Of a DNA stretch of 64,000 nt, positions 7,279-62,465 are shown piece after piece (within the stretch, counting starts at the first letter, position 1; each line of letters begins with the position of its first letter). The notes below the pieces were generated by a model. The model saw nothing but the letters and a program-made list of their open reading frames with translations. It was not told the origin of the DNA and did not search any database. The translations under genes were made by a program, and so were the position numbers. Source of the stretch: Candidatus Curtissbacteria bacterium (GTDB lineage Bacteria; Patescibacteriota; Microgenomatia; Curtissbacterales; GWA2-41-24); contig JAUSJC010000010.1 of NCBI GenBank assembly GCA_030647775.1, positions 338,646-402,645 of the forward strand, read 5' to 3'.

Positions 7279-8990
7279 AAAAGTTAACGCAGGAAAGATT
7301 ACTGCTGTCGCTTTTCATTATTCTTGTCTCCATTATTTACGGGCTTCCACATATAAAAATGATCCATAAATTGGGGTCGAAATATAACCCAATAGGATTG
7401 TCAGAGATTGCGTCAATACCCAAAGATAAGGCGTATGCTTACGCACCTTATGTTAACTATATTGCCAAAGGTAATTTCCCGTTAAGAGAAACTTATGTTT
7501 ATGAATACAAGGATTCTCAAACGCCATATATAGGGGAGACTCTCCCTGCAACACTTTTGGCGATATTATCAAAAGTGACAGGTTCAATACCAATGGGATT
7601 CCTTGCGGCTGATTTCATTTTTCCTCCGATTATCTTTGTTATGCTTTACTTAGTAGCGAGGCTTTTCATTAAAAATCATCTATTTGCCCTTAGCGCGGCG
7701 TTTTTAGCCGTTATCCTCCGTGATCTCGTGTTCGTCATTCCATATCCTCATGCCACCTTTCAATATTTGACGGATGCCGAGAATCAGCAGCAATTTCTTC
7801 ATTACTCACGTGCTTTTCACCCGCAAGTATCATTCTTTTTCTTCATTATGTCGGTTTTTTCTCTTCTTAAGTTGGTTTCAAATCCCAATAAAAAAATCGC
7901 CGTTTTGTTGGGAATTTTCTTCGGACTGCAATTTTATTCTTACCTTTTTGATTGGACTTATTTTTCGGTTTTCTTCTCGGTAATCTTTATATTCTTCTTG
8001 GTAAAAAAAGACTTTAAAATCATTAAATCAATGCTGATTGCCGGCACAGTCGCAGCAATCATAGGATCATTTTACTTTATAAACGGCTATCAATTTTCTA
8101 GATTAGATATTGCTCAGGATTTTATTAGAAAAATGACGGGTCAATCAGTACCGTTTCCAATAGCAACCTTAAGATTCCTATTAATCGCAGCCCTTTTCTT
8201 TATTTCCAAAAAGCGCAGGGATAACAAATTTATAACGTTATTTTTGTTTTTGCTTACCGGTGTTGCGATGGTCGCGATTTCAAAATTCGTGATAGGCAGG
8301 GATTTGGAAACATTTCATTATTTAAGAAGAGCCCTTGTTCCTTTTGCGACAGTCTCTCTCTTTATAATTGTATACAATATAATAGCGCGCAGTAGTAAAC
8401 GAATTATTTTTACCCTTTCAATTGCGGCCATTGCAATAACATTGTTTACCGGTATTAGGACTCAGGTAATTGCGACAAATGTACTTTCCCCCTGGCTAAT
8501 TTATGATCATGACCAGGTGAATTTGTTTAGCTTTTTGAAAGAACATACGCCGAAGGATTCCGTTATTGGTACTTTAAATATTGATTTGAATTATTTAATC
8601 CCCGTCTATACTAACAACAGAATTTATTTTCCACCCACTCTTAGAACAATTACCCCGACGTATGAAGAAGTCGACAGATATATTATCCTTGCCAATTTAC
8701 TGGGCCTCGATAGTAAATGGCAAAAGAAAAGCCTCGATACGTATCTTTTTTATATGTTCCACGCCATAGTGTACAGTACCGGAGGAGAGACTTCCAAAGT
8801 CAGAAATCAAACTGAGGAAAAGATACAAGAATCAGCGGACAACTGGGTGAACTCTTCAGGAAAGTATAGGCTCGATTATTTAATAGTTACTGCAAGCGAC
8901 TCTAACATAAAACCGGATTTGAGATTCCTACATCCCCTCACTACAGTGGACAAATATACCATCTTTACGTATTTAACTCCGCGAAAATAA
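7275..8990 (+). CDS. Polytopic membrane protein, unclassified (candidate GT-C glycosyltransferase/polymerase)
   Basis: At least 10 hydrophobic helices in the first ~400 aa followed by a ~170-aa soluble C-terminal domain. Membership in a glycosylation operon. Confidence 0.45.
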   Translation: MKKLTQERLLLSLFIILVSIIYGLPHIKMIHKLGSKYNPIGLSEIASIPKDKAYAYAPYVNYIAKGNFPLRETYVYEYKDSQTPYIGETLPATLLAILSKVTGSIPMGFLAADFIFPPIIFVMLYLVARLFIKNHLFALSAAFLAVILRDLVFVIPYPHATFQYLTDAENQQQFLHYSRAFHPQVSFFFFIMSVFSLLKLVSNPNKKIAVLLGIFFGLQFYSYLFDWTYFSVFFSVIFIFFLVKKDFKIIKSMLIAGTVAAIIGSFYFINGYQFSRLDIAQDFIRKMTGQSVPFPIATLRFLLIAALFFISKKRRDNKFITLFLFLLTGVAMVAISKFVIGRDLETFHYLRRALVPFATVSLFIIVYNIIARSSKRIIFTLSIAAIAITLFTGIRTQVIATNVLSPWLIYDHDQVNLFSFLKEHTPKDSVIGTLNIDLNYLIPVYTNNRIYFPPTLRTITPTYEEVDRYIILANLLGLDSKWQKKSLDTYLFYMFHAIVYSTGGETSKVRNQTEEKIQESADNWVNSSGKYRLDYLIVTASDSNIKPDLRFLHPLTTVDKYTIFTYLTPRK

Positions 8991-12838: not shown

Positions 12839-14167
12839 ATGAATTTAAAACATATAAGACTTCCTGGTAATTTCTATATCTTAGCTGTCATTTTCGCTTT
12901 CGTTCTAAGGTTTATATTCATGCCATTTTCTGCTCATTCCGACTTTTATGTAATTAATATGTTTCCCAGCTTACTCTGGAGAGAAAATGTAGTTGATATC
13001 CTTTCTTATTCTAGACAAGAAGTAAACAGGCCGGGATTTTCTTATTACCCGCCGCTTACATATTTCACCTTAAGCGTTTTTCAATTCTTATATCAACCTT
13101 TTTCTAATACCTTCATCCCTTGGGTAGACCAATTGAGAAGCTTATACGTTGGAGGCTTCAGGGGAACGGAGGCAGACTACATCAAGCTAGTTGACAATCC
13201 GTTTATTTTTAGAGATATATTTTTGGGGAAAACACCATACCTTATTTTTGATATAGGATGTGTTTTAGCATTAGTAGCTTTTATTAGGCGCAGGTACATA
13301 GACAAAAAAATCGTACTACTTTGGCTCTTTAACCCCGTTTTGCTATACGGAGCATACATCTTTGGCCAGTTTGATATCATTCCGGCTTTTTTTATCCTTT
13401 TGGGATTTTTATTGATAGATAAAAATCCCTCTCTTGGCCTTTTTACAGTTGGAATCGCTGGTGCTTTCAAAAACTATTCCTTTGTCTTTATTATTCCCTT
13501 AGCCGGGATTTATGGAAGATCCTTAAAAGACAAGGCGAAACTCGCTCTAATTGGCTTTGTTCCATCCTTTATTTTCGCAACTCCGACTATTATTAATAGT
13601 CCTAGTGATGCTGTATTTGCATTTTTTAATGGAATTATTCTGCAATCTAAAAGACCCTTAGAAGGTTGGCCTCTTTACTCACAGCTCCTGCGTTATACTG
13701 CTCTGGCTTTTTCTTACTTTTCCATTACTCTACTGTTTTCGTTAACAACAATAAAAAATAAATGGCGATTGTCTGTAGGAGTCTGCTGCATTGCAATTTT
13801 ATTGGTCTTAACCCTCGTACCCAGGACGTCATTCCATTATTTGTTTTGGGCATTCCCGCTAATTATTTTATGGTTCAGGGGTTTTAAGGTTTGCACTTCT
13901 ATACTTTTAATCCAAACAATAAGTTTTGCTTCATATAAAATACTTGCCCCGCAACTGCAAGCCGGGCTTTTTGTTCCGATAAACCCGGATTACTTTCATT
14001 CCCTTCCGACATTCAATTACTTACTTGGGCAAATTATTCCCTATAGAATAATAAGTACGGCAGGGTTCCTTATTTTTCTAAGCCTAAACCTTTATTTGAT
14101 AGCAAGGATAATTTACGAAATTACGTTTAAATCCGAAGTTAGTTTGCGGAAGTTAGGCCGAAGATAA
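12839..14167 (+). CDS. Polytopic membrane protein (possible DUF2029/GT87-like GT-C)
   Basis: About 11 TM helices across 442 aa. Context only; motif assignment weak. Confidence 0.4.
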   Translation: MNLKHIRLPGNFYILAVIFAFVLRFIFMPFSAHSDFYVINMFPSLLWRENVVDILSYSRQEVNRPGFSYYPPLTYFTLSVFQFLYQPFSNTFIPWVDQLRSLYVGGFRGTEADYIKLVDNPFIFRDIFLGKTPYLIFDIGCVLALVAFIRRRYIDKKIVLLWLFNPVLLYGAYIFGQFDIIPAFFILLGFLLIDKNPSLGLFTVGIAGAFKNYSFVFIIPLAGIYGRSLKDKAKLALIGFVPSFIFATPTIINSPSDAVFAFFNGIILQSKRPLEGWPLYSQLLRYTALAFSYFSITLLFSLTTIKNKWRLSVGVCCIAILLVLTLVPRTSFHYLFWAFPLIILWFRGFKVCTSILLIQTISFASYKILAPQLQAGLFVPINPDYFHSLPTFNYLLGQIIPYRIISTAGFLIFLSLNLYLIARIIYEITFKSEVSLRKLGRR

Positions 14168-15845
14168 CGAAGTTATTATTCTCTACTAGAGTCTTATATT
14201 TACTATACATATAATTTGCAAAACCCGGATTACTCAATAATCGCTTTTTGTCAGCCGATGCAAAAATAACTGCCCCCCTCGATCTTAAATACTCAAGGTA
14301 TTCTTCCGATTTTAGTCTGTAACCGTTAACTGGCGGATTATTTTTCCCTTCTATGTCAAAACTCCAGCCATTGCGATTGGAATAATAAATGACTGTCGGG
14401 CCGGAATCCATTGATCCGATTGTTAGATCATCCTGCTTCGTTAGCCTTTGTACTTCTTTCCCTGTTTCAGTTACAAATCTAAATCTGTCGATAGGCCGAT
14501 ATGCCTTAGTAAAAATTTGCGGCAAAGCACTTATACCAATCATCAAAAATATGAACGAATATACAAACCAATTATGCCTAAAATTCTTTGCTGCTTTCAT
14601 GGTTCCTAGTGCGATAAATATTGAGGCAACCGGCAAAAAAGGCAGATTATAATATTCATGTACCATTGAATGCCTATTGAAGATGAAAAAATAAATTGCT
14701 ATGCCAAGAAGCCAAAAGTAAATAAATTTCATTTTTTTATATTTGCTCGCAGAACACCATAGACTATCTGTCCATAGATAAATGCGAGAGCGAATACATA
14801 CTTCCGAGTACCAGGAGTTTTCTGCTCGCTCATGTAAACTTGAAAGAGAATACCGAGGGTTTTTAGCCCTCGGAAGTTTATAGCCGGTAAAAAGACCAAC
14901 CACGAAAAGGACTAGGCCGATGGGAAGAATAACTTGGTTGTAATTCCATCCAAAAACAGTTGCATAATATTTGTAATCTAAAAATAAAGCAGGCCGAAAC
15001 CAATTAGAAAGGGAGAAATTTTCTTGGTTGACCAAAATGTTCGTCTTGGCTACAAAATAGGCATATTGATACCATATTAGGGACGGTAAAAATGAAATTA
15101 ATACATAAAGCAGTGAATAAGAAAATCTGTGCGCCGTTTTTTGGTGTAAAATTAACAAGAGTATGGGGATAACAGTGAAGATAAACGCCGGGATTTTTAA
15201 AAGGGAAGCAACAGAGGCAAGAAGGGCTGAAATAATAAGATAAATCAATTTCTTCTTTTCGTTCCAGATCAAAGCATAAAAAATTGATCCGAGAGATAGA
15301 GTAATCATCCATTGATCGGGCTGAAAACTTCTCGACACCAAAACGGACATGGGGGATAGGCTATAGAACACAACCGTTATCAAGGAAAGCTTCTCCCCGA
15401 TTAACTTTTTAGATATTCTATATAAGAATAAAAAGGAAATGATCCACCCTAAAACAGAAAAAAGTCTTCCGAGTGTTTCATCAACGCCACCGTTTAAGAG
15501 ATATAAAAAAGCAACAGCTGTATTTAAACCGGGGAATTCCAATATATACAAGACTTCTTTTGGTCCATAAAAATTGACCGCAGGCTGCAGGATGTTAAAT
15601 CCTCCGCGGAAAAGGTTTCTAGTAATTTCTGCTGTTTGTACCTGTCTTGACGGCTCAAATTCAAGGAGCGGAATGTTTATTCTCCATAAACGCAGAGAAA
15701 GACCTAATATTAAAATTATTGCAAGAACAACATAATCTTTATTCTGAGCGAAAAAACTCCTGAATTTATGCCGGAGATGAAGCGAATTTTGAGCGAAATT
15801 CAGAGAACTACGACCCTTAGGCCGTGGGAATCTATTTATTTTCAT
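14139..15845 (-). CDS. PMT_2/ArnT-like (GT39/GT83-type) polytopic membrane glycosyltransferase
   Basis: 'LAIILILGLSLRLWRINIPLLEFE' is the N-terminal LRL-W/Y...D/E loop typical of the family. There are 12+ TM helices and a C-terminal soluble domain. The first ~35 codons overlap repeat element copy A, so the true start is uncertain. Confidence 0.55.
   Translation of the reverse strand: MKINRFPRPKGRSSLNFAQNSLHLRHKFRSFFAQNKDYVVLAIILILGLSLRLWRINIPLLEFEPSRQVQTAEITRNLFRGGFNILQPAVNFYGPKEVLYILEFPGLNTAVAFLYLLNGGVDETLGRLFSVLGWIISFLFLYRISKKLIGEKLSLITVVFYSLSPMSVLVSRSFQPDQWMITLSLGSIFYALIWNEKKKLIYLIISALLASVASLLKIPAFIFTVIPILLLILHQKTAHRFSYSLLYVLISFLPSLIWYQYAYFVAKTNILVNQENFSLSNWFRPALFLDYKYYATVFGWNYNQVILPIGLVLFVVGLFTGYKLPRAKNPRYSLSSLHERAENSWYSEVCIRSRIYLWTDSLWCSASKYKKMKFIYFWLLGIAIYFFIFNRHSMVHEYYNLPFLPVASIFIALGTMKAAKNFRHNWFVYSFIFLMIGISALPQIFTKAYRPIDRFRFVTETGKEVQRLTKQDDLTIGSMDSGPTVIYYSNRNGWSFDIEGKNNPPVNGYRLKSEEYLEYLRSRGAVIFASADKKRLLSNPGFANYMYSKYKTLVENNNFVIFGLTSAN
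15741..15837 (+). repeat. Junction repeat element, copy A (long form)
   Basis: ATTCTGAGCGAAAAAACTCC[TGAATTTATGCC]GGAGATGAAGCGAATTTTGAGCGAAATTCAGAGAACTACGACCCTTAGGCCGTGGGAATCTATTT. About 90% identical to copy C except for a 12-bp indel. Confidence 0.8.
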
Positions 15846-17631
15846 ACGTTCTCAATATATTTATCAGTTTGTTTAGTTTCCTTACGTTGCCTTTTCCAAA
15901 GTATTCTTTAGCGAATCTTATTTTGTCCCGAGAAACAAAGTCCAGCCGCGTTTCTTTTAAAAATGCTACCAATCCGAGCTGTAAATCATTTTCTGATAAT
16001 ACGGAGAATGATCTATCAAATTTTCCAACACCGAACATGTCCGTTTTATTGTAAGGATTGAAAAATACGGTAGGCTTCCCTGATAGCAAAGAATACACAC
16101 CCGCTGTGGTATTTTCAAATATTATGACGTCTGCATCTTTAAGTGCTTCATTCAAAGAATTAAAATCGGAGAATTTGCATTTTTGAGGATATTTATTAAC
16201 TAAAGCAGTAAAATTTCTTCTATTTTGGAATGGGTGGAGACGGATAGAAATTTCAACGTTAATGTCCGAGTTTAAAAGTAAAGAAAAAAGCCTTTTTTCC
16301 CAGTAAATTGTTAACCCCGGATCAAAGTAATGGATAGTAGCGAGAAATAATATTTTAATTTTGTCAGGCTTTTGGCTTTTGGAATTAACTTCAATGTTGG
16401 TGTCAAAAGGGGATTCCCCAATCAATACCTTTTTTTTACCAAGAGGCCTTCCGTCATTCGTGTAAAAGTTTGAAAAAAAAAGTTCACTTGTCTTCTTGCT
16501 CCATAAAATATGTTTATTGCTTAGAGGTAAAGGGTAGGGGATAGGTGCAAGACTTCCTCCATGTTCAATGGATATCGTTTCTACTCCTGCCTCTTTTGCC
16601 CCGGAGATAAAAGTTAAGCATTTAGTATCAGGATCGGTAAAAGTTACTAATAAATTTATCCCGGATCCTGTTATTATTTTTCTAGCTAGAATTATATCCG
16701 CGCCGATTTCTCTGAATTCATTTCTTATTACTTGTGAAATTTTAGCCTTTATAAATTTACTTGCGAATTTATCTTCGTCAAATCTAGGGTGAGAAAATTT
16801 ATTCCAAGCATGCTCTTTTATCAGATGGGATTCTATAATTTTTGATTCTTCCCAAATCTCTTTATCGTAAAGTCTTTCTTTTTCCCAAAACTCACAAGTG
16901 AAACTTTTTAACACTTTTCTTTGAGAAAAAGTAAGTCCATATGTTAAAAAAATAACGTCCAGTCCTGATTTTTTAATGTCACTTATAAATTCCTCCATTT
17001 CTAAAAATTTTGAAGGTGGAATAAGCATTAGGATTTTCCCGTTTCTAATCTTGTTTCTCTTAAGCCCATTGAGGAATTTATAGATGTTACCGACAGATTG
17101 TCTCAACTTAAATTCTCTTCTACTATTAATTGATATTTTTCTATATTTTATATTTTTCTTTCTACTAAGAAGAAAAAAGGCATGGGGAATTAAAGTGCCG
17201 TTATTAATACTATACCCGGGGTAATCTTCCAATCCAAAAGTAATTATTTTTTTTGGTTTAAAATAGTTAATTACTTTTTCACCAAAATCATAACTTCTTT
17301 CGAAATCTTGTAAAAAAAATCCTATTCTGTCTCTTACGTATTTATAATATTCATTACCAAGTTCACTATAAACGATTTTAAAATTATCTATGAAATATTT
17401 GGCGCCGCCGCTATAACCGTCCTTTGATATGAATTTATATAAGGGATTTTTCCACCCGGGGATATTTTTTTCAAGATAAAACTCAGCTTCTAGGGAAATA
17501 GCAAGATATATTTTATTTTGAGCGAAAATCAAAGAACCGCGGCCGAAAGATCGTGGGAATCTATTGTTACCAACCAGCGAAAGAGCCGTCCTTGCTTCTT
17601 CTTCGGTGCTTACTATTATTAACGTACCCAT
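15832..17631 (-). CDS. Large GT-B-like transferase (TagF/capsule-type), candidate nonulosonic-acid transferase
   Basis: 599 aa. C-terminal half 'KIKILFLATIHYFD...RLHPFQN...IIFENTTAGVYSLLSGKPTVFF' resembles CDP-glycerol glycerophosphotransferase / capsule transferase folds. Lies immediately downstream of the NulO biosynthesis genes. N-terminus overlaps repeat copy B. Confidence 0.35.
   Translation of the reverse strand: MGTLIIVSTEEEARTALSLVGNNRFPRSFGRGSLIFAQNKIYLAISLEAEFYLEKNIPGWKNPLYKFISKDGYSGGAKYFIDNFKIVYSELGNEYYKYVRDRIGFFLQDFERSYDFGEKVINYFKPKKIITFGLEDYPGYSINNGTLIPHAFFLLSRKKNIKYRKISINSRREFKLRQSVGNIYKFLNGLKRNKIRNGKILMLIPPSKFLEMEEFISDIKKSGLDVIFLTYGLTFSQRKVLKSFTCEFWEKERLYDKEIWEESKIIESHLIKEHAWNKFSHPRFDEDKFASKFIKAKISQVIRNEFREIGADIILARKIITGSGINLLVTFTDPDTKCLTFISGAKEAGVETISIEHGGSLAPIPYPLPLSNKHILWSKKTSELFFSNFYTNDGRPLGKKKVLIGESPFDTNIEVNSKSQKPDKIKILFLATIHYFDPGLTIYWEKRLFSLLLNSDINVEISIRLHPFQNRRNFTALVNKYPQKCKFSDFNSLNEALKDADVIIFENTTAGVYSLLSGKPTVFFNPYNKTDMFGVGKFDRSFSVLSENDLQLGLVAFLKETRLDFVSRDKIRFAKEYFGKGNVRKLNKLINILRTYENK
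17516..17565 (+). repeat. Junction repeat element, copy B (short form)
   Basis: TTTTGAGCGAAAATCAAAGAACCGCGGCCGAAAGATCGTGGGAATCTATT. Confidence 0.75.
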
Positions 17632-22299: not shown

Positions 22300-22345
22300 G
22301 ACTAGGCTCATAATTATTAATATGGTAATATTACCATATTGGCAA

Positions 22346-28287: not shown

Positions 28288-28953
28288 ATGGAACCGGAAA
28301 TAACTCGTCTTTACAGGTTACGTTTTGATAAAGATCTTAAGAAGAGAAACGAAATTTGGAAAATTCTTTGCAGGGATTTTTTCCAAAAATACATAAAACC
28401 TTCCGATACCGTTTGCGATCTTGGCGCGGGGTATTGTGAATTCATAAACAACATTAAAGCAAAAATCAGAATTGCCATCGACATTAACCCGGAAACCAAA
28501 AAATTTGCAAACAAAGGACTAGCAACTTTAATTACCTCAAGTACCAATTTACCTAAAAATTTGTATAACAAAGTTGACGTCGTTTTTGCCAGTAATTTTT
28601 TTGAACATTTATCCACGAAAGAAGAATTGGCAAAAACGCTGGTGGAAATTAATAAAATATTAAAAACAGGCGGGAAAATTATTGTTCTTATGCCAAACAT
28701 CCGATATATTGGGGCGGCTTACTGGGATTTTTTGGATCACCAGCTTCCGTTAACGGAAAAAAGCATGGTTGAAGCCCTAACCTTAAATGGTTGCAGGATA
28801 ATAGAAAAAAGAAACAGATTTCTACCATATACGACAAAAAGTCGCTTACCGAAAATGGGATTTTTGGTTAGACTTTATTTAAAACTAACCCCACTGCATC
28901 TACTTTTTGGGAAGCAATCGTTAATCATTGCCCAAAAACTACCACTTAAATGA
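28288..28953 (+). CDS. Class I SAM-dependent methyltransferase
   Basis: Motif I 'VCDLGAGYCEF'. 'VDVVFASNFFEHL'. 'GGKIIVLMPN'. Confidence 0.6.
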   Translation: MEPEITRLYRLRFDKDLKKRNEIWKILCRDFFQKYIKPSDTVCDLGAGYCEFINNIKAKIRIAIDINPETKKFANKGLATLITSSTNLPKNLYNKVDVVFASNFFEHLSTKEELAKTLVEINKILKTGGKIIVLMPNIRYIGAAYWDFLDHQLPLTEKSMVEALTLNGCRIIEKRNRFLPYTTKSRLPKMGFLVRLYLKLTPLHLLFGKQSLIIAQKLPLK

Positions 28954-30716
28954 CTCAAGGATTTATTTCGAGCGAAAAAACTCCGGAGATGAAACGAATT
29001 TTGAGCGAAAATCAGAGAACCACAACCTTCAGGCTGTGGGGATCTATTTCTAAAAATAAATTGGTAATCTCTTTTATTTTTGCCATTACTGCGATCAGCT
29101 TTTTCTTAAGGTTATATCAATTAGGTAATGTTCCAAACGGGCTGTCAGCAGATGAAGCAGATATGGCATATAATGCTTTTTCTATTCTTAAAACCGGTAA
29201 GGATGTTTATGGAAGGCATCTTCCCATATTTTTTCAGTCTCTTGATGGTTTTGTCCCGGGTTTCGGGATATACGCGTCTATTCCGACAATTTACATATTT
29301 GGCTTAAACGATTTTGCTATTAGGCTTTTACCTGCCGCGATTGGCGCGCTTACGCCGCTTCTAATGTATTTTCTAGCTAAAATTCTTTATCCCAAGAAGA
29401 AATATTTACCTATAATTTGTGCAATTTTAACAACTTTTGCCCCTTGGAATATAGCTATTTCTAGGGCACTCTGGCTGTACATTGAACTTATTTTTTTCTA
29501 TATCTTATTTCTTATCATTTTTTTACTGGGTATTCAAAAAAATTTTAAATTAATTATTTTAAGTGCATTAGTGCTCGTTTTGACTCAATATATTTATCTT
29601 GCGGCAATTCTTTATCTTCCGCTAATAGTTATTACTGTCACAATTATTTATAGAAAAAACTTTTCCAAAAATTTAAAAATAAGTCTTCTGGCATTATCTT
29701 TATTAATTATTTTATCTTTACCGAGTATTGTTTACTACTTAAATCAAAGCTCAAGGGGACGATTAAACTCGATTTCGATTTTTCAGAATGATGTAACGCT
29801 TCCGATATCAATATCAGAAAAGCAACAGGATATTAAAAATAACGATAACTTTAGTGCTTTATTGCATAATCGCAGACTGGTATATTTAATCGATTCGGTA
29901 GAAAACTATTTCAAATACATAAATTTTAGTGCCCTTTTCGTTAATAGTAGTGGTATTCGGCTGTTTTATGTAAACTACGTTGGATTATTTTATCTTATTG
30001 AACTGCCTTTTTTCCTATTTGGATTCTTATATCTTATAAATGATATTAGGAAAGAGCACAATCTTCTTGTCGCAAGTTTATTTCTGATCGGGCCCATACC
30101 CGCTATATTTATACTCGGAGCCACTTTTTTTCATAGATCTATTTTATTTTTACTGGCAATTCAAATTATTTCAGCAGTCGGGATTAACAATTTTTATGAA
30201 CAAATAAAGAAAACTAAAGTTAAATATTGGTTACATATTGTTATCTTTCTTGTCCTTGTGTATATGTCAAGCATATATTTCTTTTTGCACCAGTATTTTA
30301 TCCATTCACCAAACGAGTTTACTTCTGAAGATGATAATGGGGCGTGGTTTTCTACGGTAAAAAATGCTATTCCAATAGTTAATGAAAATAAAACAAAATA
30401 CGAGAAAATAGTTTTCACTTGGTCTAAGAGCAAACTTATTCCCCCCGTTTACTTTCTTTTTTACAACAAAGTTGATCCTTCTGTAATGCAAAAAAAGGCT
30501 TCCGGTTGGACGAACGAACCGCCCTCTTATAAACAGATCTACAATCAAATTGACAATATTGAATTTAGGTCAATTAACTGGCTTCAAGACAAAAATCTCA
30601 AAAGCGCTCTTTTTATTGGGTACCCGAGCGATTTTCCGGAGGACGTAAAAAACGTAGTTGCAAAAACGTATCTGCCAAACGGCGAGGTTCATTTTCTTGT
30701 TGTTAAAAATCCCTAA
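28950..30716 (+). CDS. PMT_2/ArnT-like (GT83/GT39-type) membrane glycosyltransferase
   Basis: 'FFLRLYQLGNVPNGLSADEADMAYNAFS' is a textbook first-loop motif. 12+ TM helices plus a C-terminal periplasmic domain. The first ~30 codons overlap repeat copy C, so the real start may be downstream. Confidence 0.6.
   Translation: MTQGFISSEKTPEMKRILSENQRTTTFRLWGSISKNKLVISFIFAITAISFFLRLYQLGNVPNGLSADEADMAYNAFSILKTGKDVYGRHLPIFFQSLDGFVPGFGIYASIPTIYIFGLNDFAIRLLPAAIGALTPLLMYFLAKILYPKKKYLPIICAILTTFAPWNIAISRALWLYIELIFFYILFLIIFLLGIQKNFKLIILSALVLVLTQYIYLAAILYLPLIVITVTIIYRKNFSKNLKISLLALSLLIILSLPSIVYYLNQSSRGRLNSISIFQNDVTLPISISEKQQDIKNNDNFSALLHNRRLVYLIDSVENYFKYINFSALFVNSSGIRLFYVNYVGLFYLIELPFFLFGFLYLINDIRKEHNLLVASLFLIGPIPAIFILGATFFHRSILFLLAIQIISAVGINNFYEQIKKTKVKYWLHIVIFLVLVYMSSIYFFLHQYFIHSPNEFTSEDDNGAWFSTVKNAIPIVNENKTKYEKIVFTWSKSKLIPPVYFLFYNKVDPSVMQKKASGWTNEPPSYKQIYNQIDNIEFRSINWLQDKNLKSALFIGYPSDFPEDVKNVVAKTYLPNGEVHFLVVKNP
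28965..29049 (+). repeat. Junction repeat element, copy C (long form)
   Basis: TTTCGAGCGAAAAAACTCCGGAGATGAAACGAATTTTGAGCGAAAATCAGAGAACCACAACCTTCAGGCTGTGGGGATCTATTT. Confidence 0.8.
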
Positions 30717-33265: not shown

Positions 33266-34513
33266 CTACACGATTTTTATTTTAGGAATGGGAATTATAA
33301 ACTTTCCGCCATTTTTTTTAAACTCTCGTTCTTTCTCAATAATTTCGTCAGCAAAATTCCAGGCGAGAATGAGTATATAATCTGGTCTGTCTTTTGCTAT
33401 TCTACTTTCCCCATAAACCGGGATATGAACACCGGGGGTAAATAACCCTTGTTTATATGGAGTGGAATCGACAATGTAGTCTAAAATGTTAGTGCCAATA
33501 CCAAAATAATTAGTCAAAACATTGCCCTTTGCGGCAGCGCCATACCCAATAATTTTTTTTCTCTTTTTCTTCAAATCGGTCAACAGTTCCATAAGCTCAA
33601 CTTTTAAATTTTCAATTCTTCTGGCAAAATCGATCAAAGCCTTTGTTGAATATAAGCCTTGGTTTTCTTCAACAGAAAGCAAATATTTCACGGTATTTAA
33701 GGCCTTATTGCTTTTACGGCTTTTTTTTCTGTGAATCAAACGGATAGAACCGCCATGTATCAAAAGTCGCTGGACACCTATTATCTCAAAACCATATAGG
33801 CTGATCAATTTAATCCAAGGCTTGAGTGAAAAATATGACAGATGTTCATGATAAATAGTATCGAATTCATTTTTTTTAATAAGGTCTACCAAATATGGAA
33901 ATTCTGTAACAAATACACCGTCTTTTGCCAGCAAACTCGCTACACCCTCAAAGACCTGATGCAGATTATCAATATGGGCAATTACGTTAGTCGCGGTTAT
34001 TACATCTGCTTTCCCATATTTTTTCACTATTTGTTTCGCGTTTCGAGCGTTAAAAAATTTTACTTCCGTAGGTATTCCTTTCATCTCTGCAAGCTTCGCT
34101 AAATTTTTTGCAGGATCAATTCCAAGAACTTTAACTTCAAAATTTTTGAAAAAGGTCAATAGGCTTCCATCATTAGATCCAATATCTACTACCAGTGAAG
34201 ATTTATTCAATTTGAACTCCTTGTATATTTGAAAAGCAAGATTGCCAAAGTTATTCATCATAACCTTGGCCATAGAAGGGATGTAAACATAGTTTTTGAA
34301 CATCAGTGCGGGGTTAACAACAATAGAAAGTTGTACCAAACAACAGTCTTCACAAAATAAACATGCAAGTTCAAATTTCTGCTCGGAAGTTTTTAATTTA
34401 TCTCTTTCTAAGAAGCCATTCGGTATCGGCATAGACCCTAAATCGAGAAATTTAAAAAGCCGCCTGCTATGACAAATTCTGCATTTTTCCACATCTCTAT
34501 AAGCTTTTTTCAT
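33266..34513 (-). CDS. Zinc-binding SAM-dependent sugar C-methyltransferase-like enzyme
   Basis: N-term 'CRICHSRRL...CEDCCLVQL' zinc-binding domain. Motif I 'VVDIGSNDGSL'. Long C-terminal domain, about 415 aa. Confidence 0.6.
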   Translation of the reverse strand: MKKAYRDVEKCRICHSRRLFKFLDLGSMPIPNGFLERDKLKTSEQKFELACLFCEDCCLVQLSIVVNPALMFKNYVYIPSMAKVMMNNFGNLAFQIYKEFKLNKSSLVVDIGSNDGSLLTFFKNFEVKVLGIDPAKNLAKLAEMKGIPTEVKFFNARNAKQIVKKYGKADVITATNVIAHIDNLHQVFEGVASLLAKDGVFVTEFPYLVDLIKKNEFDTIYHEHLSYFSLKPWIKLISLYGFEIIGVQRLLIHGGSIRLIHRKKSRKSNKALNTVKYLLSVEENQGLYSTKALIDFARRIENLKVELMELLTDLKKKRKKIIGYGAAAKGNVLTNYFGIGTNILDYIVDSTPYKQGLFTPGVHIPVYGESRIAKDRPDYILILAWNFADEIIEKEREFKKNGGKFIIPIPKIKIV

Positions 34514-34583
34514 AGAGTTAATAATAGGGCTATCGGAGATTATTAATCAAGTTCAAGATTATGAGTCGAATTGGTGAAGACTT

Positions 34584-34668
34584 ATTCTGAGCGAAAATCA
34601 GAGAACCACGGCCTTAGTTCGCAAGCTCACGTTTTTGCTTCGCAAAAAGAGGCCGTGGGAATCTATTT
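34584..34668 (+). repeat. Junction repeat element, copy D (short form with 37-bp hairpin insertion)
   Basis: ATTCTGAGCGAAAATCAGAGAACCACGGCC-TTAG-[TTCGCAAGCTCACGTTTTTGCTTCGCAAAAAGA]-GGCCGTGGGAATCTATTT. Outer perfect 8-bp inverted repeat CCACGGCC/GGCCGTGG. Inner perfect hairpin TTTTTGC-TTC-GCAAAAA. Confidence 0.8.
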
Positions 34669-36321
34669 AAACTTTAAAATATCAAAATATGGCCCGGTAC
34701 GTTCTAGGCTATACATTGAAAACGTCTCCCCATTATCATAGCTCTCAAAATTAGAAGCGGCTTCGTATAATGCTTCTGGTAGTATTCCACGATATGCAAG
34801 CCCGCTTTTCAAAGGGCTAAAGGTGGCTACCTTTTTCAGCAAATTAGGGTTTTGTGAATAAATACTGTCTTTCGGGTAGTAGTAGTAGTCTATGACATAA
34901 GAAATAGGATAATCGCCTGTTGCGTTGTTAAGTTTTTCCATTTTCGTTTTGCCGCCCGCGGGTGCCGTGTAGACAATGTTTCTCATATTAGGCAAGTAGT
35001 TACCGCTAAGCACAGTTGCTTCCTGATAATAATTAGGCTGGAATTTTTGTCCATTTAAAATTGCTTCTTTTGAAGGAACGAAAGTTTGATATCTTCCTCC
35101 TAAATAAGCAATAGGTTCTCGCGGGTTAATATTTCGAGCGATCCAATCTCTTGCCTGAATGAAAGTCGGTTCTTTCAAAAAAATATAATTCCAGTAAAAA
35201 GAATTAAAACCTGCAACAAAAAAAATTACCGTCAGGGTAAAAAATTTCAAAGGCCAGCTATTTTCCAATAAGCGCCATTTAAGGCCATTCCAAGTGGCAA
35301 AAGCCGCAAAAGGGATGAGTAGAAAAATTGCAATATTAAAATAATGCAAAACGGGGTAAAGAAAAAACAATGCAAAAACAAAATTAGCAATGAGGAAATA
35401 AAATACGAGCCTTGCTTGTTTGCTAAAGGTTCTAAAACCAAAGACGCTAAGTGTTCCAAATAATAATATTACAAAATCTGTCTTTGCAAAACTTCTGATG
35501 ATAAAAAACAAGTTGGGATTGGTCAAATTATTGATAAGTTTCGCCAATATACCGCTTTCATGTCTGAATAACGCGCCAATAAAGGAATCGGGTCGTAGTT
35601 TTAAAAGAGCGTCCTCAAATCCTGAATGTAAGACTAATCTGCTTAAAATCAAAACAGAAAATGCACTTAGCAAAAGACCGATTATAAATTGGCGTAAATA
35701 CTTTTTTTCAAAGAAGAGAAATATCAGGGGGAAGCTGAAAATCCCAATTTGTAGAAAACCATAAGAAACAATTGCACAAATAAATGCCCATAAAAATTGT
35801 CTCTTTAAACAAAAATATAAAGCCAACAGCAAAAAAAACATTGCTTCGGGCCATGGTCTTGCAAAATGAGACATGTGAACCAAATTGAATGAAAAAGAGG
35901 CAAGCAGTGCAGCCAGCATAGCGATCCGTTTATTCTCGAATAAAAGCTTTGTCAAGTGATAAATTAAAAGAATTGTTAGAGTACCAAAGAATGCCGAGTA
36001 AAATCTCGGTATAAATAAAAAGTAACCCTCATGTGTAATTACAAATTGCCTAAACTCATCAATATTATGGATATTACCCATTGTCTTCATATATAGATAA
36101 GAAAAGCCAATAAAAGGAATTTGGATGTAGGCACTAAGAGGCGTGTAATAAGATTGAGACTTTATCGTTTTTTGTGCAATCATCGTATAAGCTGATATTT
36201 GCGTAATTGCCTCATCGTTAGAGACATAAAGCGATGGGGAACCAAAATTTAAACCCAAAAAACGTAGTCCTACACCAACCAAGACAATTAAAATTAAAAA
36301 TTTACTTTTGAATAACGACAT
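34663..36321 (-). CDS. PMT_2/ArnT-like polytopic membrane glycosyltransferase
   Basis: 'LIVLVGVGLRFLGLNFGSPSLYVSNDEA' first-loop motif. Multiple TM helices. Stop codon supplied by repeat copy D. Confidence 0.55.
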   Translation of the reverse strand: MSLFKSKFLILIVLVGVGLRFLGLNFGSPSLYVSNDEAITQISAYTMIAQKTIKSQSYYTPLSAYIQIPFIGFSYLYMKTMGNIHNIDEFRQFVITHEGYFLFIPRFYSAFFGTLTILLIYHLTKLLFENKRIAMLAALLASFSFNLVHMSHFARPWPEAMFFLLLALYFCLKRQFLWAFICAIVSYGFLQIGIFSFPLIFLFFEKKYLRQFIIGLLLSAFSVLILSRLVLHSGFEDALLKLRPDSFIGALFRHESGILAKLINNLTNPNLFFIIRSFAKTDFVILLFGTLSVFGFRTFSKQARLVFYFLIANFVFALFFLYPVLHYFNIAIFLLIPFAAFATWNGLKWRLLENSWPLKFFTLTVIFFVAGFNSFYWNYIFLKEPTFIQARDWIARNINPREPIAYLGGRYQTFVPSKEAILNGQKFQPNYYQEATVLSGNYLPNMRNIVYTAPAGGKTKMEKLNNATGDYPISYVIDYYYYPKDSIYSQNPNLLKKVATFSPLKSGLAYRGILPEALYEAASNFESYDNGETFSMYSLERTGPYFDILKFK

Positions 36322-54694: not shown

Positions 54695-54823
54695 ATGGCC
54701 GCCGGTTCCGTTGAAGCTCAGGAACTTACTAAATACCCGCTCACAAAATCGGTTCTGGATATAGGCTGCGGCTTTGGGGAATTTCGGTGGGTTAATATTT
54801 ACCATTCCAAATTATGCTTATAA
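54695..54823 (+). pseudogene. Remnant of a class I SAM methyltransferase (43-codon N-terminal fragment)
   Basis: Translates to 'MAAGSVEAQELTKYPLTKSVLDIGCGFGEFRWVNIYHSKLCL*'. 'VLDIGCGFGEF' is a perfect MTase motif I. Locally GC-rich. The stop overlaps the start of the following membrane gene. Confidence 0.35.
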
Positions 54824-56505
54824 TCGCCAAGCCTATGATCAACATACGTAAATATCTTCATCCTGCCACGCTTTTTGCAATAACCTTCATTACAGCCCTT
54901 GTTTTTCCACTCTATCAATTCATCCATTCAGGAGATTTCTTAACTCACGACAGGGCAGTTCATGCGTTTAGGACCAGTGAATATTATAGTGCTTTGGTTG
55001 CAGGGCATATCCCACCCCGTCTTGCACCCTACTTTTTAGGTGGATCTGGTTATCCGCTATTTTTGATGAATTACCAGCTGCCTTATCTCGTGGGTTCAGC
55101 GTTTCTTGCAATAGGATTATCTGCCGAAATCACAGTCAGGATACTTACAGTGTTTAGCTACATATTATATGCCGCTGGTGGATTTCTGTTTTTTAAAACA
55201 ATCGCCTCCCGTAAAATTGCCGCCCTGGCAACTTTAAACCTTGTCTATACTCCTTACCTTTTTGCAAACATCTTTATTCGAGGCGCTCTACCGGAATTTA
55301 TGGCCTCTGCGATACTGATGTGGATCCTATATGCTATTTCAAGTCATAAACAAAAAAACTTTCCTACGCTTGTTGTGGGTTGTCTTTTAGGCCTCCAGCT
55401 GTTGACACAAACAACAGTAGCGCTAATAGGTCTACCACTGGTCATTATGGTAACATCCCTTTCCGGAGGTAAGAGATGGCTTTCGTGGTGTGCTTCTGCC
55501 ATGTTTGCTTACGCAATCGGTGGCCTACTGGCGTCTTTCATATTGATTCCAGCCGTCTTTGAACGACATTACTTTCAGTTTGATACCCAAACCCACACTT
55601 TCATTAACAATCATTTTATTCCCTTGACCCAGCTGATTAAGCTGCCTTTTTTCCATACAACTGACAGTGCGCTAGAGTTAAGCTTTACGCAGACTTTTTT
55701 GATGATCGCATCTCTCGTTTTGCTGCCTTTTGGGAGAAAATTAGCAAGTTTTTGGGCTTTTGGTCTCCTTGCTCTTTCATGGTGTTTTCTCTACCTAATT
55801 ACGCCCCAGGCCGGTTTTTTGTGGAATAATGTCTCCATTATTCAGGCAGTAGTGTTTCCATGGCGTCTACTTACACCCATATCCATTACCGTAAGTATCC
55901 TACTTATTTACCTTATAAAACTGCACAGGCGCTTGTTTGTACCGGCTGTAGTTTTAACTCTTATGTCTATGTTTCTGACCAGACATTTCATTAAACCCGT
56001 AGAGTTTAGTGCCCAGTTCGTTCAAATTTCAGACCAATATGTTACAGGAACAACCGATGGAGTATTCACACCCATTGGAGCGCGAACAGATAAAACACTA
56101 ATTACTCTGCCCTCTGTAAGAATACTAAGTGGTAGGGCGCAAGTATTGCAAAATGAACAATCAGTTGGCAGATGGATTGCCCGTGTCATAGTAGATGAAG
56201 CTGCCACTGTCCAGGCAAAAGTACTCTATTTCCCAGGGTGGCGCTTCTTTGTCAATGGGCATGAGCAGCTCATCCCATATCCGATTGTTACACATTATCC
56301 AAATAGTTATCCCGGACTTCCGGAAATAGGCTTATCTACCGGTGTTTATACATTAGAGTTTCGTTATGTGGAAACAACTTTACGGAAAGTAGGGAATATT
56401 TTAAGCTTAAGTACCTTTTTAATGCTATCAATTTGTCTACTTAAAAAAAGTAAAATATTGAAATTTATGCCGATTTGTAGAGGACGCCGTAATCGAGAAA
56501 CATAA
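54814..56505 (+). CDS. Polytopic membrane protein, unclassified (candidate GT-C acceptor-side glycosyltransferase)
   Basis: About 12 TM helices plus a ~170-aa C-terminal domain. Divergent from the ArnB/ArnC-like genes. Confidence 0.45.
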   Translation: MLIIAKPMINIRKYLHPATLFAITFITALVFPLYQFIHSGDFLTHDRAVHAFRTSEYYSALVAGHIPPRLAPYFLGGSGYPLFLMNYQLPYLVGSAFLAIGLSAEITVRILTVFSYILYAAGGFLFFKTIASRKIAALATLNLVYTPYLFANIFIRGALPEFMASAILMWILYAISSHKQKNFPTLVVGCLLGLQLLTQTTVALIGLPLVIMVTSLSGGKRWLSWCASAMFAYAIGGLLASFILIPAVFERHYFQFDTQTHTFINNHFIPLTQLIKLPFFHTTDSALELSFTQTFLMIASLVLLPFGRKLASFWAFGLLALSWCFLYLITPQAGFLWNNVSIIQAVVFPWRLLTPISITVSILLIYLIKLHRRLFVPAVVLTLMSMFLTRHFIKPVEFSAQFVQISDQYVTGTTDGVFTPIGARTDKTLITLPSVRILSGRAQVLQNEQSVGRWIARVIVDEAATVQAKVLYFPGWRFFVNGHEQLIPYPIVTHYPNSYPGLPEIGLSTGVYTLEFRYVETTLRKVGNILSLSTFLMLSICLLKKSKILKFMPICRGRRNRET

Positions 56506-60276: not shown

Positions 60277-60834
60277 ATGTGTCTCTATAACAAGTTAAGA
60301 TATCTAATATTGCCTATCAGGCAAATAGATAGCGCTCTACCGTCAAGTGGCCAAATCGTCGACCTTGGCTGTGGTCAGGGTATCCTGGCCGCTTATCTGG
60401 CGAGGAGAAAAGAGCGCAATGTCATAGGCGTAGATCTCGACGCAGCTAGGTTGCCAAACAAAGAGTTGGCAAACCTTAAATTTATAAAGGCCGATATCAC
60501 TAAATACAATCTAAAAAACGTCGACGGTATTGTCATTTCCGACGTCCTTCACCATATAAGCCGTGTCGACCAAAGTGAACTTCTTGCCAAAATCGCCAAA
60601 GGTTTAAAGAGAGGGGGTATCCTTGTTATCAAAGAAATAGATTCGAAAGAATTTATCAGAAGCAAGCTTACCAGGCTCTGGGATTTTATTCTCTACCCCC
60701 ATGATGAAATTTCTTTCTCGAATTCCCAAACACTCACGCGAAATCTAAAAAGGTTAGGTTTTAATGTTAACGTCCAAAGGGTGGTTACATGGTTTCCCGG
60801 CTCAACCACTCTCTACATATGTACAAAAAGATAA
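60277..60834 (+). CDS. Class I SAM-dependent methyltransferase
   Basis: Motif I 'IVDLGCGQGILAAYLA'. 'GIVISDVLHHI'. 'GGILVIKE'. Confidence 0.6.
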   Translation: MCLYNKLRYLILPIRQIDSALPSSGQIVDLGCGQGILAAYLARRKERNVIGVDLDAARLPNKELANLKFIKADITKYNLKNVDGIVISDVLHHISRVDQSELLAKIAKGLKRGGILVIKEIDSKEFIRSKLTRLWDFILYPHDEISFSNSQTLTRNLKRLGFNVNVQRVVTWFPGSTTLYICTKR

Positions 60835-62465
60835 GCAGAGCTTTTCCGCGAATAAGCGAAGCTTTTCTACGAATAAGCAGAGCTTTTCTACGAATAAGCA
60901 GAGCTTTTCTACGAATAAGCAGAGCTTTTCATCAAATAATAAAATTTTGGCCAATTGCTACTCTTCTTTTAATAACCCTTATTTCAAGAATCATAAATTT
61001 AGAAAAACTTTTCTATTTTACCTACGATGAATCAATCCCGGCTTTTGTCGGCCGCCGCCTCATTCTTTGGTATCACATTCCCTTAATCGGCGGCGCCACG
61101 CCGTTTGGTTTTCACCTTGGCCCTTATTTTTACTGGTTTTACGCCGCGCTTCTTGCCGTCGGCCGTCTTAACCCGCTTGTCTGGGGATATGCCGCTACAG
61201 TCATTTCAGTATTTACTACCTTATTAATGTATATTGTCGGCAAGAACTTCGGCGGCAAAAAAGTCGGTATTACCGCGGCAGTGTTCTGGACGTTTTCGTA
61301 CCTTGCTAATATCTACGACCGCCATCTCTGGGCGCTTTTCTGGGGCCCGCTAACTAGCCTTTTAGTTTTGTTTTTCTTAGAAAAAATAATTTCCGGCCGT
61401 CAAAAATTCATTTATCTGCTTGCCTTAACAATTGGTCTTTCCATTCATGCCGATCCGTCGAATATTATCTTTGTCATTCTTGCCGTTTTTGCTTTCGCCT
61501 ACTGGAAGGTGTCTATCAAGAAGAATCTATCGATTCTTTTTGCGGCCATTATTCTTTTTACCCTTCCGCTTGTTGCTTTTGACCTTCGCCACGATTTTGC
61601 CAATATCCGCCCGACTGCAGGTTTCATCAAGGCCGGCGCAAACACCCCGGCAATCCGTACCCAAAAATTCGTTACCAATTCGCTTCTGTTCCCGCAGGCG
61701 GCAACACGCCTTGTCTATACTTTTGGGGATAACCAAGTTGCTAAACAGTATTCCTATTGCAAAAACTTCGTCGCCGAAAAGTTTGCCGCCACTGCTCAAA
61801 TCTTTGTTTTCTTATCCGCCTTTGCCATTCTTGCTTTCATCCTCTGGTCTTTCAAAAACCGCCAAAGTTTATGGTTTCTTGTTTCCAGTTTATTGTTGCT
61901 CTACTTCCTCGGCATCCAAATTTATGGCACGATTCTCGGCGGTGACATTTTTGAGCACTACATCACTGGCCTTTTCCCGGCGTTTTTACTAATTACCGCC
62001 TTTTTTGTAAGCAAATTACCCAAAAAACTTTGGCTTGTTGCCCTTGGCATTTTTGTCGCCGCCAATCTTTATAAATTATCGCTTGCTCAAAACAGTCAGG
62101 GGCTGACCGAAAAAAGAGAAGCAATTGAATATACAATGCGGCAGGTGGGGGATAAACCATTTTCGCTTGACTCCCTGTCAACCTGCTGGAAGTTGAATGG
62201 CTACCGCTATCTTTTTGCCGTTTACGGTAGGGAGCCGGTCAAAAGTTATGTCGACCCAAATTTTGCCTACCTTTATGGTACTACCCCGGTCTGGGATCAT
62301 CATCCGGCGACTGTCGTCGCCTTTGTGGTTCACGACTACGCCCCCGAAACTCAAGCCTTTTACCAACGCTACGCCCTTTTAAAATCCCACCAAATTTCCT
62401 CATCCAAATTTGGCTCCATTGAGGTAATCGTAATGGATAACTCAACAGGCTGGTTTGATAAATAG
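60819..62465 (+). CDS. PMT_2/ArnT-like polytopic membrane glycosyltransferase with N-terminal 7-aa tandem-repeat tail
   Basis: 'FYFTYDESIPAFVGRRLILWYHIPLIGGATPFGFHLGPYFYW' first-loop motif. Start assumed at 'MYKKISRAF' (16-nt overlap with the MTase). N-terminus holds (ISRAFLR)x4 encoded by a 21-bp tandem repeat. Confidence 0.55.
   Translation: MYKKISRAFPRISEAFLRISRAFLRISRAFLRISRAFHQIIKFWPIATLLLITLISRIINLEKLFYFTYDESIPAFVGRRLILWYHIPLIGGATPFGFHLGPYFYWFYAALLAVGRLNPLVWGYAATVISVFTTLLMYIVGKNFGGKKVGITAAVFWTFSYLANIYDRHLWALFWGPLTSLLVLFFLEKIISGRQKFIYLLALTIGLSIHADPSNIIFVILAVFAFAYWKVSIKKNLSILFAAIILFTLPLVAFDLRHDFANIRPTAGFIKAGANTPAIRTQKFVTNSLLFPQAATRLVYTFGDNQVAKQYSYCKNFVAEKFAATAQIFVFLSAFAILAFILWSFKNRQSLWFLVSSLLLLYFLGIQIYGTILGGDIFEHYITGLFPAFLLITAFFVSKLPKKLWLVALGIFVAANLYKLSLAQNSQGLTEKREAIEYTMRQVGDKPFSLDSLSTCWKLNGYRYLFAVYGREPVKSYVDPNFAYLYGTTPVWDHHPATVVAFVVHDYAPETQAFYQRYALLKSHQISSSKFGSIEVIVMDNSTGWFDK
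60831..60935 (+). repeat. Tandem repeat, 21-bp unit x5 (ATAAGCAGAGCTTTTCTACGA consensus; first and last units degenerate)
   Basis: Direct reading: 60831-60851, 60852-60872, 60873-60893, 60894-60914, 60915-60935. Units 3 and 4 are identical. Confidence 0.85.

Follow-up and report, generated by a model that had tools for sequence, protein, structure and literature searches.

What is the short, hairpin-rich segment that separates two tandem minus-strand genes at positions 34584-34668 of a stretch of Candidatus Curtissbacteria DNA, and how did it come to lie there? The window analysed here (the whole stretch, 64 kb in length) is a surface-glycan biosynthesis island encoding GT1/GT2/GT4/GT-C glycosyltransferases, NeuB, DegT aminotransferases, epimerases, methyltransferases and an ABC-2 exporter, and the initial annotation had described the segment as copy D of a 'junction element'. 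The 85-bp interval reads ATTCTGAGCGAAAATCAGAGAA-CCACGGCC-(37 nt)-GGCCGTGG-GAATCTATTT. Copy D itself occupies 34583..34667 of the + strand, i.e., a left TATT (34583-34586), a body (34587-34663) and a right TATT (34664-34667), and it matches the profile of its repeat family with an nhmmer E of 2.4e-9. Our analysis indicates that copy D is very probably one copy of a small, non-autonomous mobile DNA element of Candidatus Curtissbacteria-like genomes, which belong to the Microgenomates of the Candidate Phyla Radiation (CPR). The element is located at TATT sites where genes end, and in many cases it is translated.

Insertion of the repeat at TATT sites

The event of insertion could be read directly in the lspA gene of another assembly. 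Compared to five orthologues (63-73% identity, 132 aa), the LspA protein P0066 of locus L007 contains an exact 31-residue insertion between RFYLL and IFLIIFLDQ, and alignment of the DNA with three syntenic empty loci (L013, L014 and L015, each with the order dksA-like, lspA, rluD) resolved this as a 93-nt insertion. The empty site reads ...CCTCCT-TATTTT-TCTTATT... and the occupied site reads ...ACT-TATTTT-GAGCG...GGGGGTC-TATTTT-TCTTATT..., with TATT(TT) present once in the former and twice in the latter. The same boundary was seen throughout the family: all 10 copies available as DNA are delimited as TATT...TATT (one reading TATG), and a T precedes the left TATT in nine of the 10. The full element is 89 nt long, and each insertion adds 93 nt when the one extra TATT is counted. 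Unit lengths were 93, 48, 81 and 81 nt for copies A-D and 93, 93, 93, 129, 93 and 48 nt for the other six, all of them multiples of three. As side observations, the L007 insertion (3286-3378) splits the first membrane helix of LspA between RFYLL and IFLIIFLDQ, and it contains an in-frame ATG (MKRILSEN...) at which translation could newly start, and which copy C likewise has in frame.

Within the window, a repeat search and nhmmer found exactly four copies, all on the + strand, with hits at 15786, 17515, 28998 and 34584; the left half of the copy D element taken by itself has three window matches at <=3 mismatches, against 0 expected. Copies A and C are long forms, which carry an extra left module with a second hairpin and have 92 nt in common, while B and D are short forms. 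Copy A (15740..15836, +) is a 93-nt unit whose left hairpin is degenerate. The open reading frame (ORF) 15832..17631(-) owes its TAG stop to this copy, and the PMT_2 gene 14139..15845(-) owes to it 31 in-frame codons of its N-terminal tail. Copy B (17514..17565, +; a 48-nt unit) contributes 16 in-frame codons near the start of 15832..17631(-), so that the N-terminal parts of 14139..15845 and 15832..17631 are translated from A and B in one common minus-strand frame, NRFPRxxGRxSLxFAQN. Copy C (28964..29048, +; an 81-nt unit with a 12-nt deletion in the left hairpin) provides 27 codons on the + strand in the N-terminal tail of the PMT gene 28950..30716(+), where it is read as RILSENQRTTTFRLWGSI. 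Excision of A restores ...RTYENK* upstream and MKINKDYVVLAIIL / MKINKDYVVLAIILILG downstream, excision of C restores MTQGFISKNKLVISFIF / MTQGFISKNKLVISFIFAIT, and excision of B leaves the frame intact. This shows that three GT-C gene termini in the glycan island have been remodelled by insertions.

Copy D differs from A and B in that every frame of the strand on which they are translated is closed. Of the two stops initially counted in the A/B frame of copy D, one (TAA, in the insert) does lie within the element; the next (TAG) comes 27 codons on, in the spacer. The broader statement made from those stops, that the family is not maintained as coding sequence, held up, given translation from opposite strands in different genes, absence from orthologues, and the closed frames of D.

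Unrelated proteins encoded in other assemblies contain the repeat, too. When concatenated translations of the element served as the query of a protein search, the repeat was located at the C-terminus of a Fic protein, at the N-terminus of a beta-lactamase-like and of a hypothetical protein, in LspA (read there in the plus-strand frame), and in an ORF made of the repeat. Among 1.84 billion protein representatives, 22 cluster representatives matched a profile of the minus-strand frame at E < 1e-3, and by reading 19 retrieved sequences approximately 13 look like true copies in unrelated proteins. P0084, a protein of 544 residues that looks like a GT-C/TPR membrane protein, has its copy mid-protein, and P0081, a different LspA, has a short-form copy. 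Via the translations, further DNA copies were located at six more loci in independent assemblies (L005, L006, L007, two in L008, L010 and L016/L017), and one copy outside the window lies downstream of nusG. Scans of genome and metagenome contigs with the DNA pattern GAGCGAAANTCANAGAACNNCNNCC gave only chance matches (response-regulator genes, an Ignavibacteriaceae contig) because this pattern is too window-specific, most outside copies reading GAGCGAAGATCA; a looser family pattern is GAGCGAARATCAGAGAR plus CGTGGGRATCTAT. Viral contigs gave 0 matches. These results show that the repeat is a discrete insertion at TATT/AATA sites, dispersed among unrelated genes and assemblies. The term 'junction element' therefore had to be abandoned, since the repeat is not specific to glycosyltransferase junctions and is a mobile insertion bounded by TATT, with an empty site.

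Two of these outside loci deserve separate description. At L010 (495-591), a Fic-domain gene that follows a MazE-like antitoxin gene has the element in frame immediately behind the residues HPFNDGN. The Fic active-site motif is located at this point, and the toxin may be inactivated. The short L008 contig has two copies (756-892 and 948-1054) approximately 190 nt apart, the first with two extra perfect hairpins and the second heavily degenerate, which together make up most of a predicted 139-aa ORF, P0067, that is probably spurious.

Where copy D lies, the minus-strand ORFs 34663..36321 and 33266..34513 are separated by 149 nt (34514-34662). The initial placement of copy D in a 150-bp non-coding spacer was thus close in length, and was only partly right as to content: the TAG stop codon of 34663..36321 (34663..34665, -) falls inside the element, its G being the first element base on the - strand, so copy D is not wholly outside coding sequence. 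Excising copy D restores AAA TAA, i.e., ...GPYFDILKFK followed by TAA, and the empty site expected on excision is ...TTTAAATAAGTCTTC.... This reconstruction shows that copy D sits inside the original TAA stop of the GT-C gene and now supplies a TAG in its place. The gene itself (34663..36321, -) encodes a phospholipid-carrier-dependent (PMT-family) GT-C glycosyltransferase whose C-terminus, ...GPYFDILKFK, is at the family-normal position, where homologues end. Its product is 100% identical to a protein from a Candidatus Curtissbacteria metagenome-assembled genome; the next homologue is 46% identical. No element was present at two PMT homologue loci (L011 and L012), which are distant homologues.

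Architecture of the element and loop expansion in copy D

On the minus strand of the window, the consensus runs from AATA into GATTC, a hairpin CCACGGCC-TAAA-GGCCGTGG, the segment TTCTCTGATCTTCGCTCAAAATTCGCTTCAT, a second module of 8-bp hairpin and TAAA, and TTTTTTCGCTCAG, ending at AATA. The long form thus contains a pair of similar, directly oriented hairpins, and on the reverse strand a T-rich run and TTCGCTCARAAT come after each of them. In many copies both 8-bp hairpins apparently read CCACGG..CCGTGG (in DNA for L005, elsewhere as deduced from peptides). No terminal inverted repeats were seen when the termini, CTGAGCGAAAA... and ...CCGTGGGAATC, were read directly rather than scored; they are not complementary. 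On each strand, the consensus leaves exactly one frame open, and the translated copies use these two frames. Because the length is a multiple of three and one frame is open on each strand, copies that land in genes survive as in-frame peptides.

In copy D, hairpin 1 (34586..34602, +; TCTGA-GCGAAAA-TCAGA) is weak, with a 5-bp stem, and most other copies have one T·G wobble pair there on the + strand. The main hairpin (34606..34658) has perfect 9-bp arms at 34606-34614 (CCACGGCCT) and 34650-34658 (AGGCCGTGG) with 35 nt between them, and within it lies the inner hairpin (34632..34648), TTTTTGC-TTC-GCAAAAA, whose arms (34632-34638 and 34642-34648) form a perfect 7-bp stem around a 3-nt loop. The sequence and the 7-bp hairpin within an outer stem are as initially annotated, and the outer stem proved perfect over 9 bp. 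Folding of copy D gave -31.2 kcal/mol for the + strand (z = -3.8) and -30.2 kcal/mol for the - strand (z = -3.5). With DNA parameters, the nested stem-in-stem is the minimum-energy structure of both strands; with RNA parameters, the insert prefers an alternative 9-bp bulged pairing, and the inner hairpin belongs to the minimum-energy structure with DNA parameters only. Nested perfect hairpins occur at three loci in the window, compared to 0.19 per shuffled window. The other two loci (12298-12358 and 58824-58880) are intragenic and apparently unrelated to the element. In general, the window has about twice as many perfect 8-bp inverted repeats (loops of 3-45 nt) as composition-matched shuffles do: 133 were counted, and the shuffles averaged 63 and reached 89 at most.

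The inner hairpin is part of a loop insertion at 34618..34650. This segment measures 33 nt and overlaps the 9-bp 3' arm by one base, 34650, which ends the segment and begins the arm. Counted between 8-bp arms, copy D has a loop of 37 nt, which is a net gain of 33 nt over the 4-nt loops of other copies; the 81-nt unit is the 48-nt short form plus 33 nt. The initial annotation was right to place an insert in the loop, and its size of 37 bp has to be corrected, as 37 nt is the loop and both the string it quoted and the net insertion are 33 nt. The insert carries the direct repeat TTCGCAA twice, 21 nt apart. It has no relative elsewhere in the window, and against the element consensus, on either strand, it shows no significant similarity, local alignments being no better than shuffles. 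We thus rejected both a partial copy of the element, direct or inverted, and a second repeat family, of which the window holds no further copy, as the source of the insert.

Copy D is a shortened, deleted (48-nt) form of the 93-nt two-hairpin unit that has been internally expanded. Its history would have had two steps, in which the second hairpin was lost by deletion between two TTTTCGCTCA repeats, and the unique 33-nt segment was later gained in the hairpin loop. Other members of the family have also grown. The 36 extra nt of the L008 copy consist of two perfect hairpins, CCACGT-caa-ACGTGG and GTCGAGT-ttg-ACTCGAC, and P0072 has a 7-residue insertion (21 nt) that, to judge from the peptide, is probably palindromic. 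Since L008 and P0072 also carry extra segments, at other positions, hairpin gain is a real trait of the repeat family. Of the modular, possibly recombinational growth that had been proposed for copy D, growth by added hairpins is borne out by L008, P0072 and D; a recombinational origin is not, as the D insert has no detectable relative in the window. The size changes in the family (-12, +21, +33 and +36) are all multiples of three. That this regularity is meaningful is suggestive at most, the change in D being the only one that is free of ORF-based discovery bias.

Mobilisation and alternative explanations

An element of this kind would be mobilised in trans. The candidate that we favour, at slightly less than an even chance, is a hairpin-recognising single-strand transposase (HUH/Y1, IS200/IS605-like) that targets TATT. 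It is preferred over a DDE-type enzyme with a 4-bp duplication, which we consider unlikely, because the element has no terminal inverted repeats, has two like hairpins on one strand and a fixed tetranucleotide target, and is co-oriented in 4/4 window copies, in a window where the cumulative GC skew falls almost throughout. Some other mobilising agent is a serious possibility, likewise somewhat short of even. The two copies of TATT at an occupied site allow for more than one mechanism, in that an occupied site would have the same appearance whether the target was duplicated or the element brought its own TATT to a fixed target.

Several observations weigh against a mobile element, or against this manner of moving it. 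The TATT flanks fit a 4-bp target-site duplication equally well, which would imply a different enzyme class, and co-orientation of four copies out of four has a chance probability of 1/8. No transposase or recombinase gene was found in the 64-kb window, and an autonomous element with matching ends was not found. The total of approximately 10 DNA copies includes non-window ones that were found via ORF translations and is thus biased to in-frame copies. The main hairpin and hairpin 1 are 93% paired, and their covariation does not exceed that of shuffles (312/500 reach the observed value). Finally, the one Y1/RAYT-like gene near a copy has other flanks. On L016, 15001-15736 holds a 219-aa gene (15043..15702, -) resembling Y1_Tnp and the REP-associated tyrosine transposases (RAYTs; REP, repetitive extragenic palindromic), with an NF047646 score of 61 bits, below the cut-off of 80, and a short-form copy of the element lies 9.5 kb away on the same contig. 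This gene is flanked on both sides by a perfect palindrome, TTTAGGGGTTCAACCCCTAAA, which is unrelated to the element and occurs nowhere else in the sequences examined. The gene is no more than a lead, and a RAYT link was rejected. As a separate observation, the Y1 gene adjoins a partial duplication of the 5' end of yebC/TACO1 (MSGHSKWSQIKR twice).

The alternative that survives best, improbable as we judge it, is that the stem-loop of copy D evolved to serve the glycosyltransferase gene, either as an intrinsic terminator or to stabilise its mRNA, and that the family consists of selected regulatory RNA structures. On the minus strand, the strong stem-loop of copy D does follow directly after the GT-C stop codon and is succeeded by UUCUCUGAUUUU. 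Most DNA copies, by a reading of the gene tables, are sense and 3' of a gene, and the long form has a canonical stem and T6 on the same strand: the left hairpin with T6 on the reverse strand was called terminator-like in L005, L007 and L010. Copy D lacks this left hairpin. The left (second) hairpin also covaries, its pairing being kept with both-sided changes at 6/8 pairs (0/500 shuffles; 7 sequences). As it changes on both sides and yet stays paired, a hairpin at this position matters to the element or to the host. Against a structure evolved in place, the empty-site comparison shows acquisition by insertion, some copies are antisense within operons (C, L007) and others are embedded in coding regions (A, B, L006, P0084), and the main stem decays by one-sided changes without covariation. 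The main hairpins diverge as would be expected of decaying copies of a master sequence, and selection on the CCACGGCC stem itself gains no support from covariation. In addition, copy D was not called terminator-like and no Rfam family matches: at the gathering threshold there were 0 matches over the window, and when copy A and the L007 copy were scanned permissively, all matches were at chance level (E > 0.8).

Insertion of a mobile element, the reading we retain, leaves room for an effect of copy D on its new surroundings. As a stable 3' stem-loop, copy D may perhaps end or protect the glycosyltransferase transcript, a role that we put forward tentatively from the predicted fold. Two findings weigh against it. 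The terminator scan made no call on copy D, as the loop region of 35-37 nt is too large and T accounts for 4/8 of the first bases after the stem, and long-form copies in the 'terminating' orientation lie within 5' coding regions (A, L006). Because of the latter, termination would not be efficient. The downstream gene (33266..34513, -) encodes a sugar C-methyltransferase (Methyltransf_13/14), and between copy D and its start codon is a sigma-70-like promoter match (34521..34550, -; TTGATT-18-TATTAT), which agrees with the consensus only; the methyltransferase may use this promoter-like site of its own.

It is very improbable that paralogous GT-C genes recombined or underwent gene conversion and left the copies behind as scars, i.e., as shared gene ends at the cassette junctions of a glycan-synthesis island. 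All four window copies touch GT-C-like genes of the 64-kb island, and the 92 nt common to A and C would fit such an exchange. The similarity nevertheless ends exactly at the TATT boundaries, the element is read on opposite strands in different GT-C genes, and GT-C homologues elsewhere are without it; other genomes have it at sites that include lspA, a Fic gene and a position downstream of nusG, and the lspA empty-site comparison contradicts the idea outright.

We give almost no credence to the hairpin being a stray CRISPR-type repeat or other CRISPR-related protein-binding palindrome: the FPRPKGRGS profile does also match ORFs in which a similar peptide recurs 3-10x at a spacing of approximately 23 residues, e.g., FPRSEGRGSIEA, but those matches cover only profile positions 5-15 (the GC palindrome), PRPxGRG results from any CCNCGGCC-loop-GGCCGNGG palindrome translated in that frame, the flanks of the element are fixed and its boundaries are TATT, and the window contains no array, spacers or cas genes. 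Five predicted proteins with a regularly spaced repeated peptide that matches the hairpin peptide (P0075, P0077, P0080, P0083 and P0085) look like translated CRISPR arrays of GC-rich organisms, the match being apparently coincidental. Three further ideas were discarded. An origin from a GT-C N-terminus, raised by the shared peptide 'W.SI', fails because the codons differ (AGT vs TCT); a diversity-generating retroelement target or template fails because the differences are not adenine-specific and the window has no reverse transcriptase; and an integron attC site fails for lack of core sites.

Some features of the window stand apart from the repeat. Its gene content includes no reverse transcriptase, no cas gene and no tRNA genes. 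GT-C paralogues of PMT/PMT_2 type are unusually dense in the island, with at least five (14139-17631, 28950-30716, 34663-36321, 39508-41355 and 56825-58105), and four long membrane ORFs there have no Pfam match (7275..8990, 15832..17631, 54814..56505 and 60789..62465). Five head-to-tail copies of a 21-nt unit, ATAAGCAGAGCTTTTCTACGA, which would read as a 7-residue repeat, occupy 60831-60960, where the methyltransferase gene 60277..60834 overlaps the start of the 558-aa ORF 60789..62465, which itself has no Pfam match. ORFs 21559-22620 (-, cytidylyltransferase) and 22091-23704 (+, DUF4910/DUF2172) overlap on opposite strands by approximately 530 nt, both with strong Pfam matches, and the true start of at least one of them is probably further in.

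Relation to known repeat families and meaning for CPR genomes

Rickettsia and a few other lineages are known to have small palindromic repeats that enter genes and become translated, and the machinery that mobilises them is mostly unknown. The Rickettsia palindromic elements (RPEs), which Ogata and colleagues are said to have described in 2000, resemble the present family by description, without a comparison of sequences: both are short palindromic interspersed repeats found between genes and inside protein-coding genes, the intragenic copies stay in frame and are translated as an extra peptide, and for neither is the mobilising enzyme known. Here, in-frame insertion is seen in the 31 codons added to lspA and in copies A, B and C, and non-coding insertion in copy D. 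The differences lie in the host, as Rickettsia and CPR are unrelated lineages, in the size and form of the repeat, which is shorter (89 nt) and has two direct hairpins instead of one long palindrome, and in the defined TATT boundary repeat and documented empty site of the present family.

In its ends, the element is more like the palindrome-associated transposable elements (PATEs) derived from IS200/IS605, or the ends of IS608. These have similar same-strand subterminal hairpins at both ends without terminal inverted repeats, as does the long form here, and they share with it insertion adjoining a fixed tetranucleotide and a bias to one orientation within a replichore. In contrast to the PATEs, the present element has no TnpA/TnpB partner with matching ends that we could find, and its short form keeps a single strong hairpin. 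Its flanking TATT could furthermore be a true target duplication, and IS200/IS605 elements make none.

REP sequences and REPINs with their RAYTs have in common with the repeat that they are short, dispersed, GC-rich palindromes, and there is a Y1/RAYT-like gene on the L016 contig that holds a copy. The repeat nonetheless does not belong to that system: REPs are extragenic, usually form inverted pairs and flank the RAYT gene, whereas the present copies are often in ORFs with their hairpins direct, and the L016 gene is flanked by the different palindrome TTTAGGGGTTCAACCCCTAAA. Bacterial miniature inverted-repeat transposable elements (MITEs), e.g., Correia/CREE of Neisseria, Chunjie of Geobacter and Nezha of cyanobacteria, are defined by terminal inverted repeats, which the present element lacks. 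It is like them in being small and non-autonomous, with dispersed copies of 48-129 nt (four in the window and at least six in other assemblies) flanked by short direct repeats, and, as MITEs are, it is tolerated inside operons and glycan gene clusters and can add terminator- or promoter-like signals. The enterobacterial repetitive intergenic consensus (ERIC), also termed the intergenic repeat unit (IRU), consists of one palindrome of 127 bp, which lies outside genes and is transcribed. Its size variants arise through internal insertions and deletions at set places of an imperfect palindrome, and in this it recalls the loop insertion of copy D and the short form; its sequence is unrelated to that of the present element.

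The nested hairpin of copy D is real, and the repeat is a new family of a familiar, selfish kind of repeat rather than a new mechanism. The literature that we searched has no description of this repeat family, nor of mobile mini-elements in CPR/Microgenomates. On a more far-reaching view, which we regard as doubtful, this would be the first defined CPR transposable mini-element: one that is hairpin-ended and without inverted repeats, reaches TATT sites as single-stranded DNA through the action of a Y1/HUH enzyme, has its length held to multiples of three for life in genes, grows by accretion of perfect mini-hairpins, as exemplified by the loop insert of D, the two additional hairpins of L008 and P0072, and provides surface-glycan and envelope genes with stop codons, start codons and N-terminal tails.

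Taken by itself, copy D is a variant copy and its practical importance is modest. The family as a whole, with its clean empty site, exact boundaries, fixed target and size variants, makes the mechanism of such repeats testable in CPR/Microgenomates. For the annotation of these genomes, the repeat explains odd N-terminal extensions, spurious small ORFs and 'motifs' shared by unrelated proteins.

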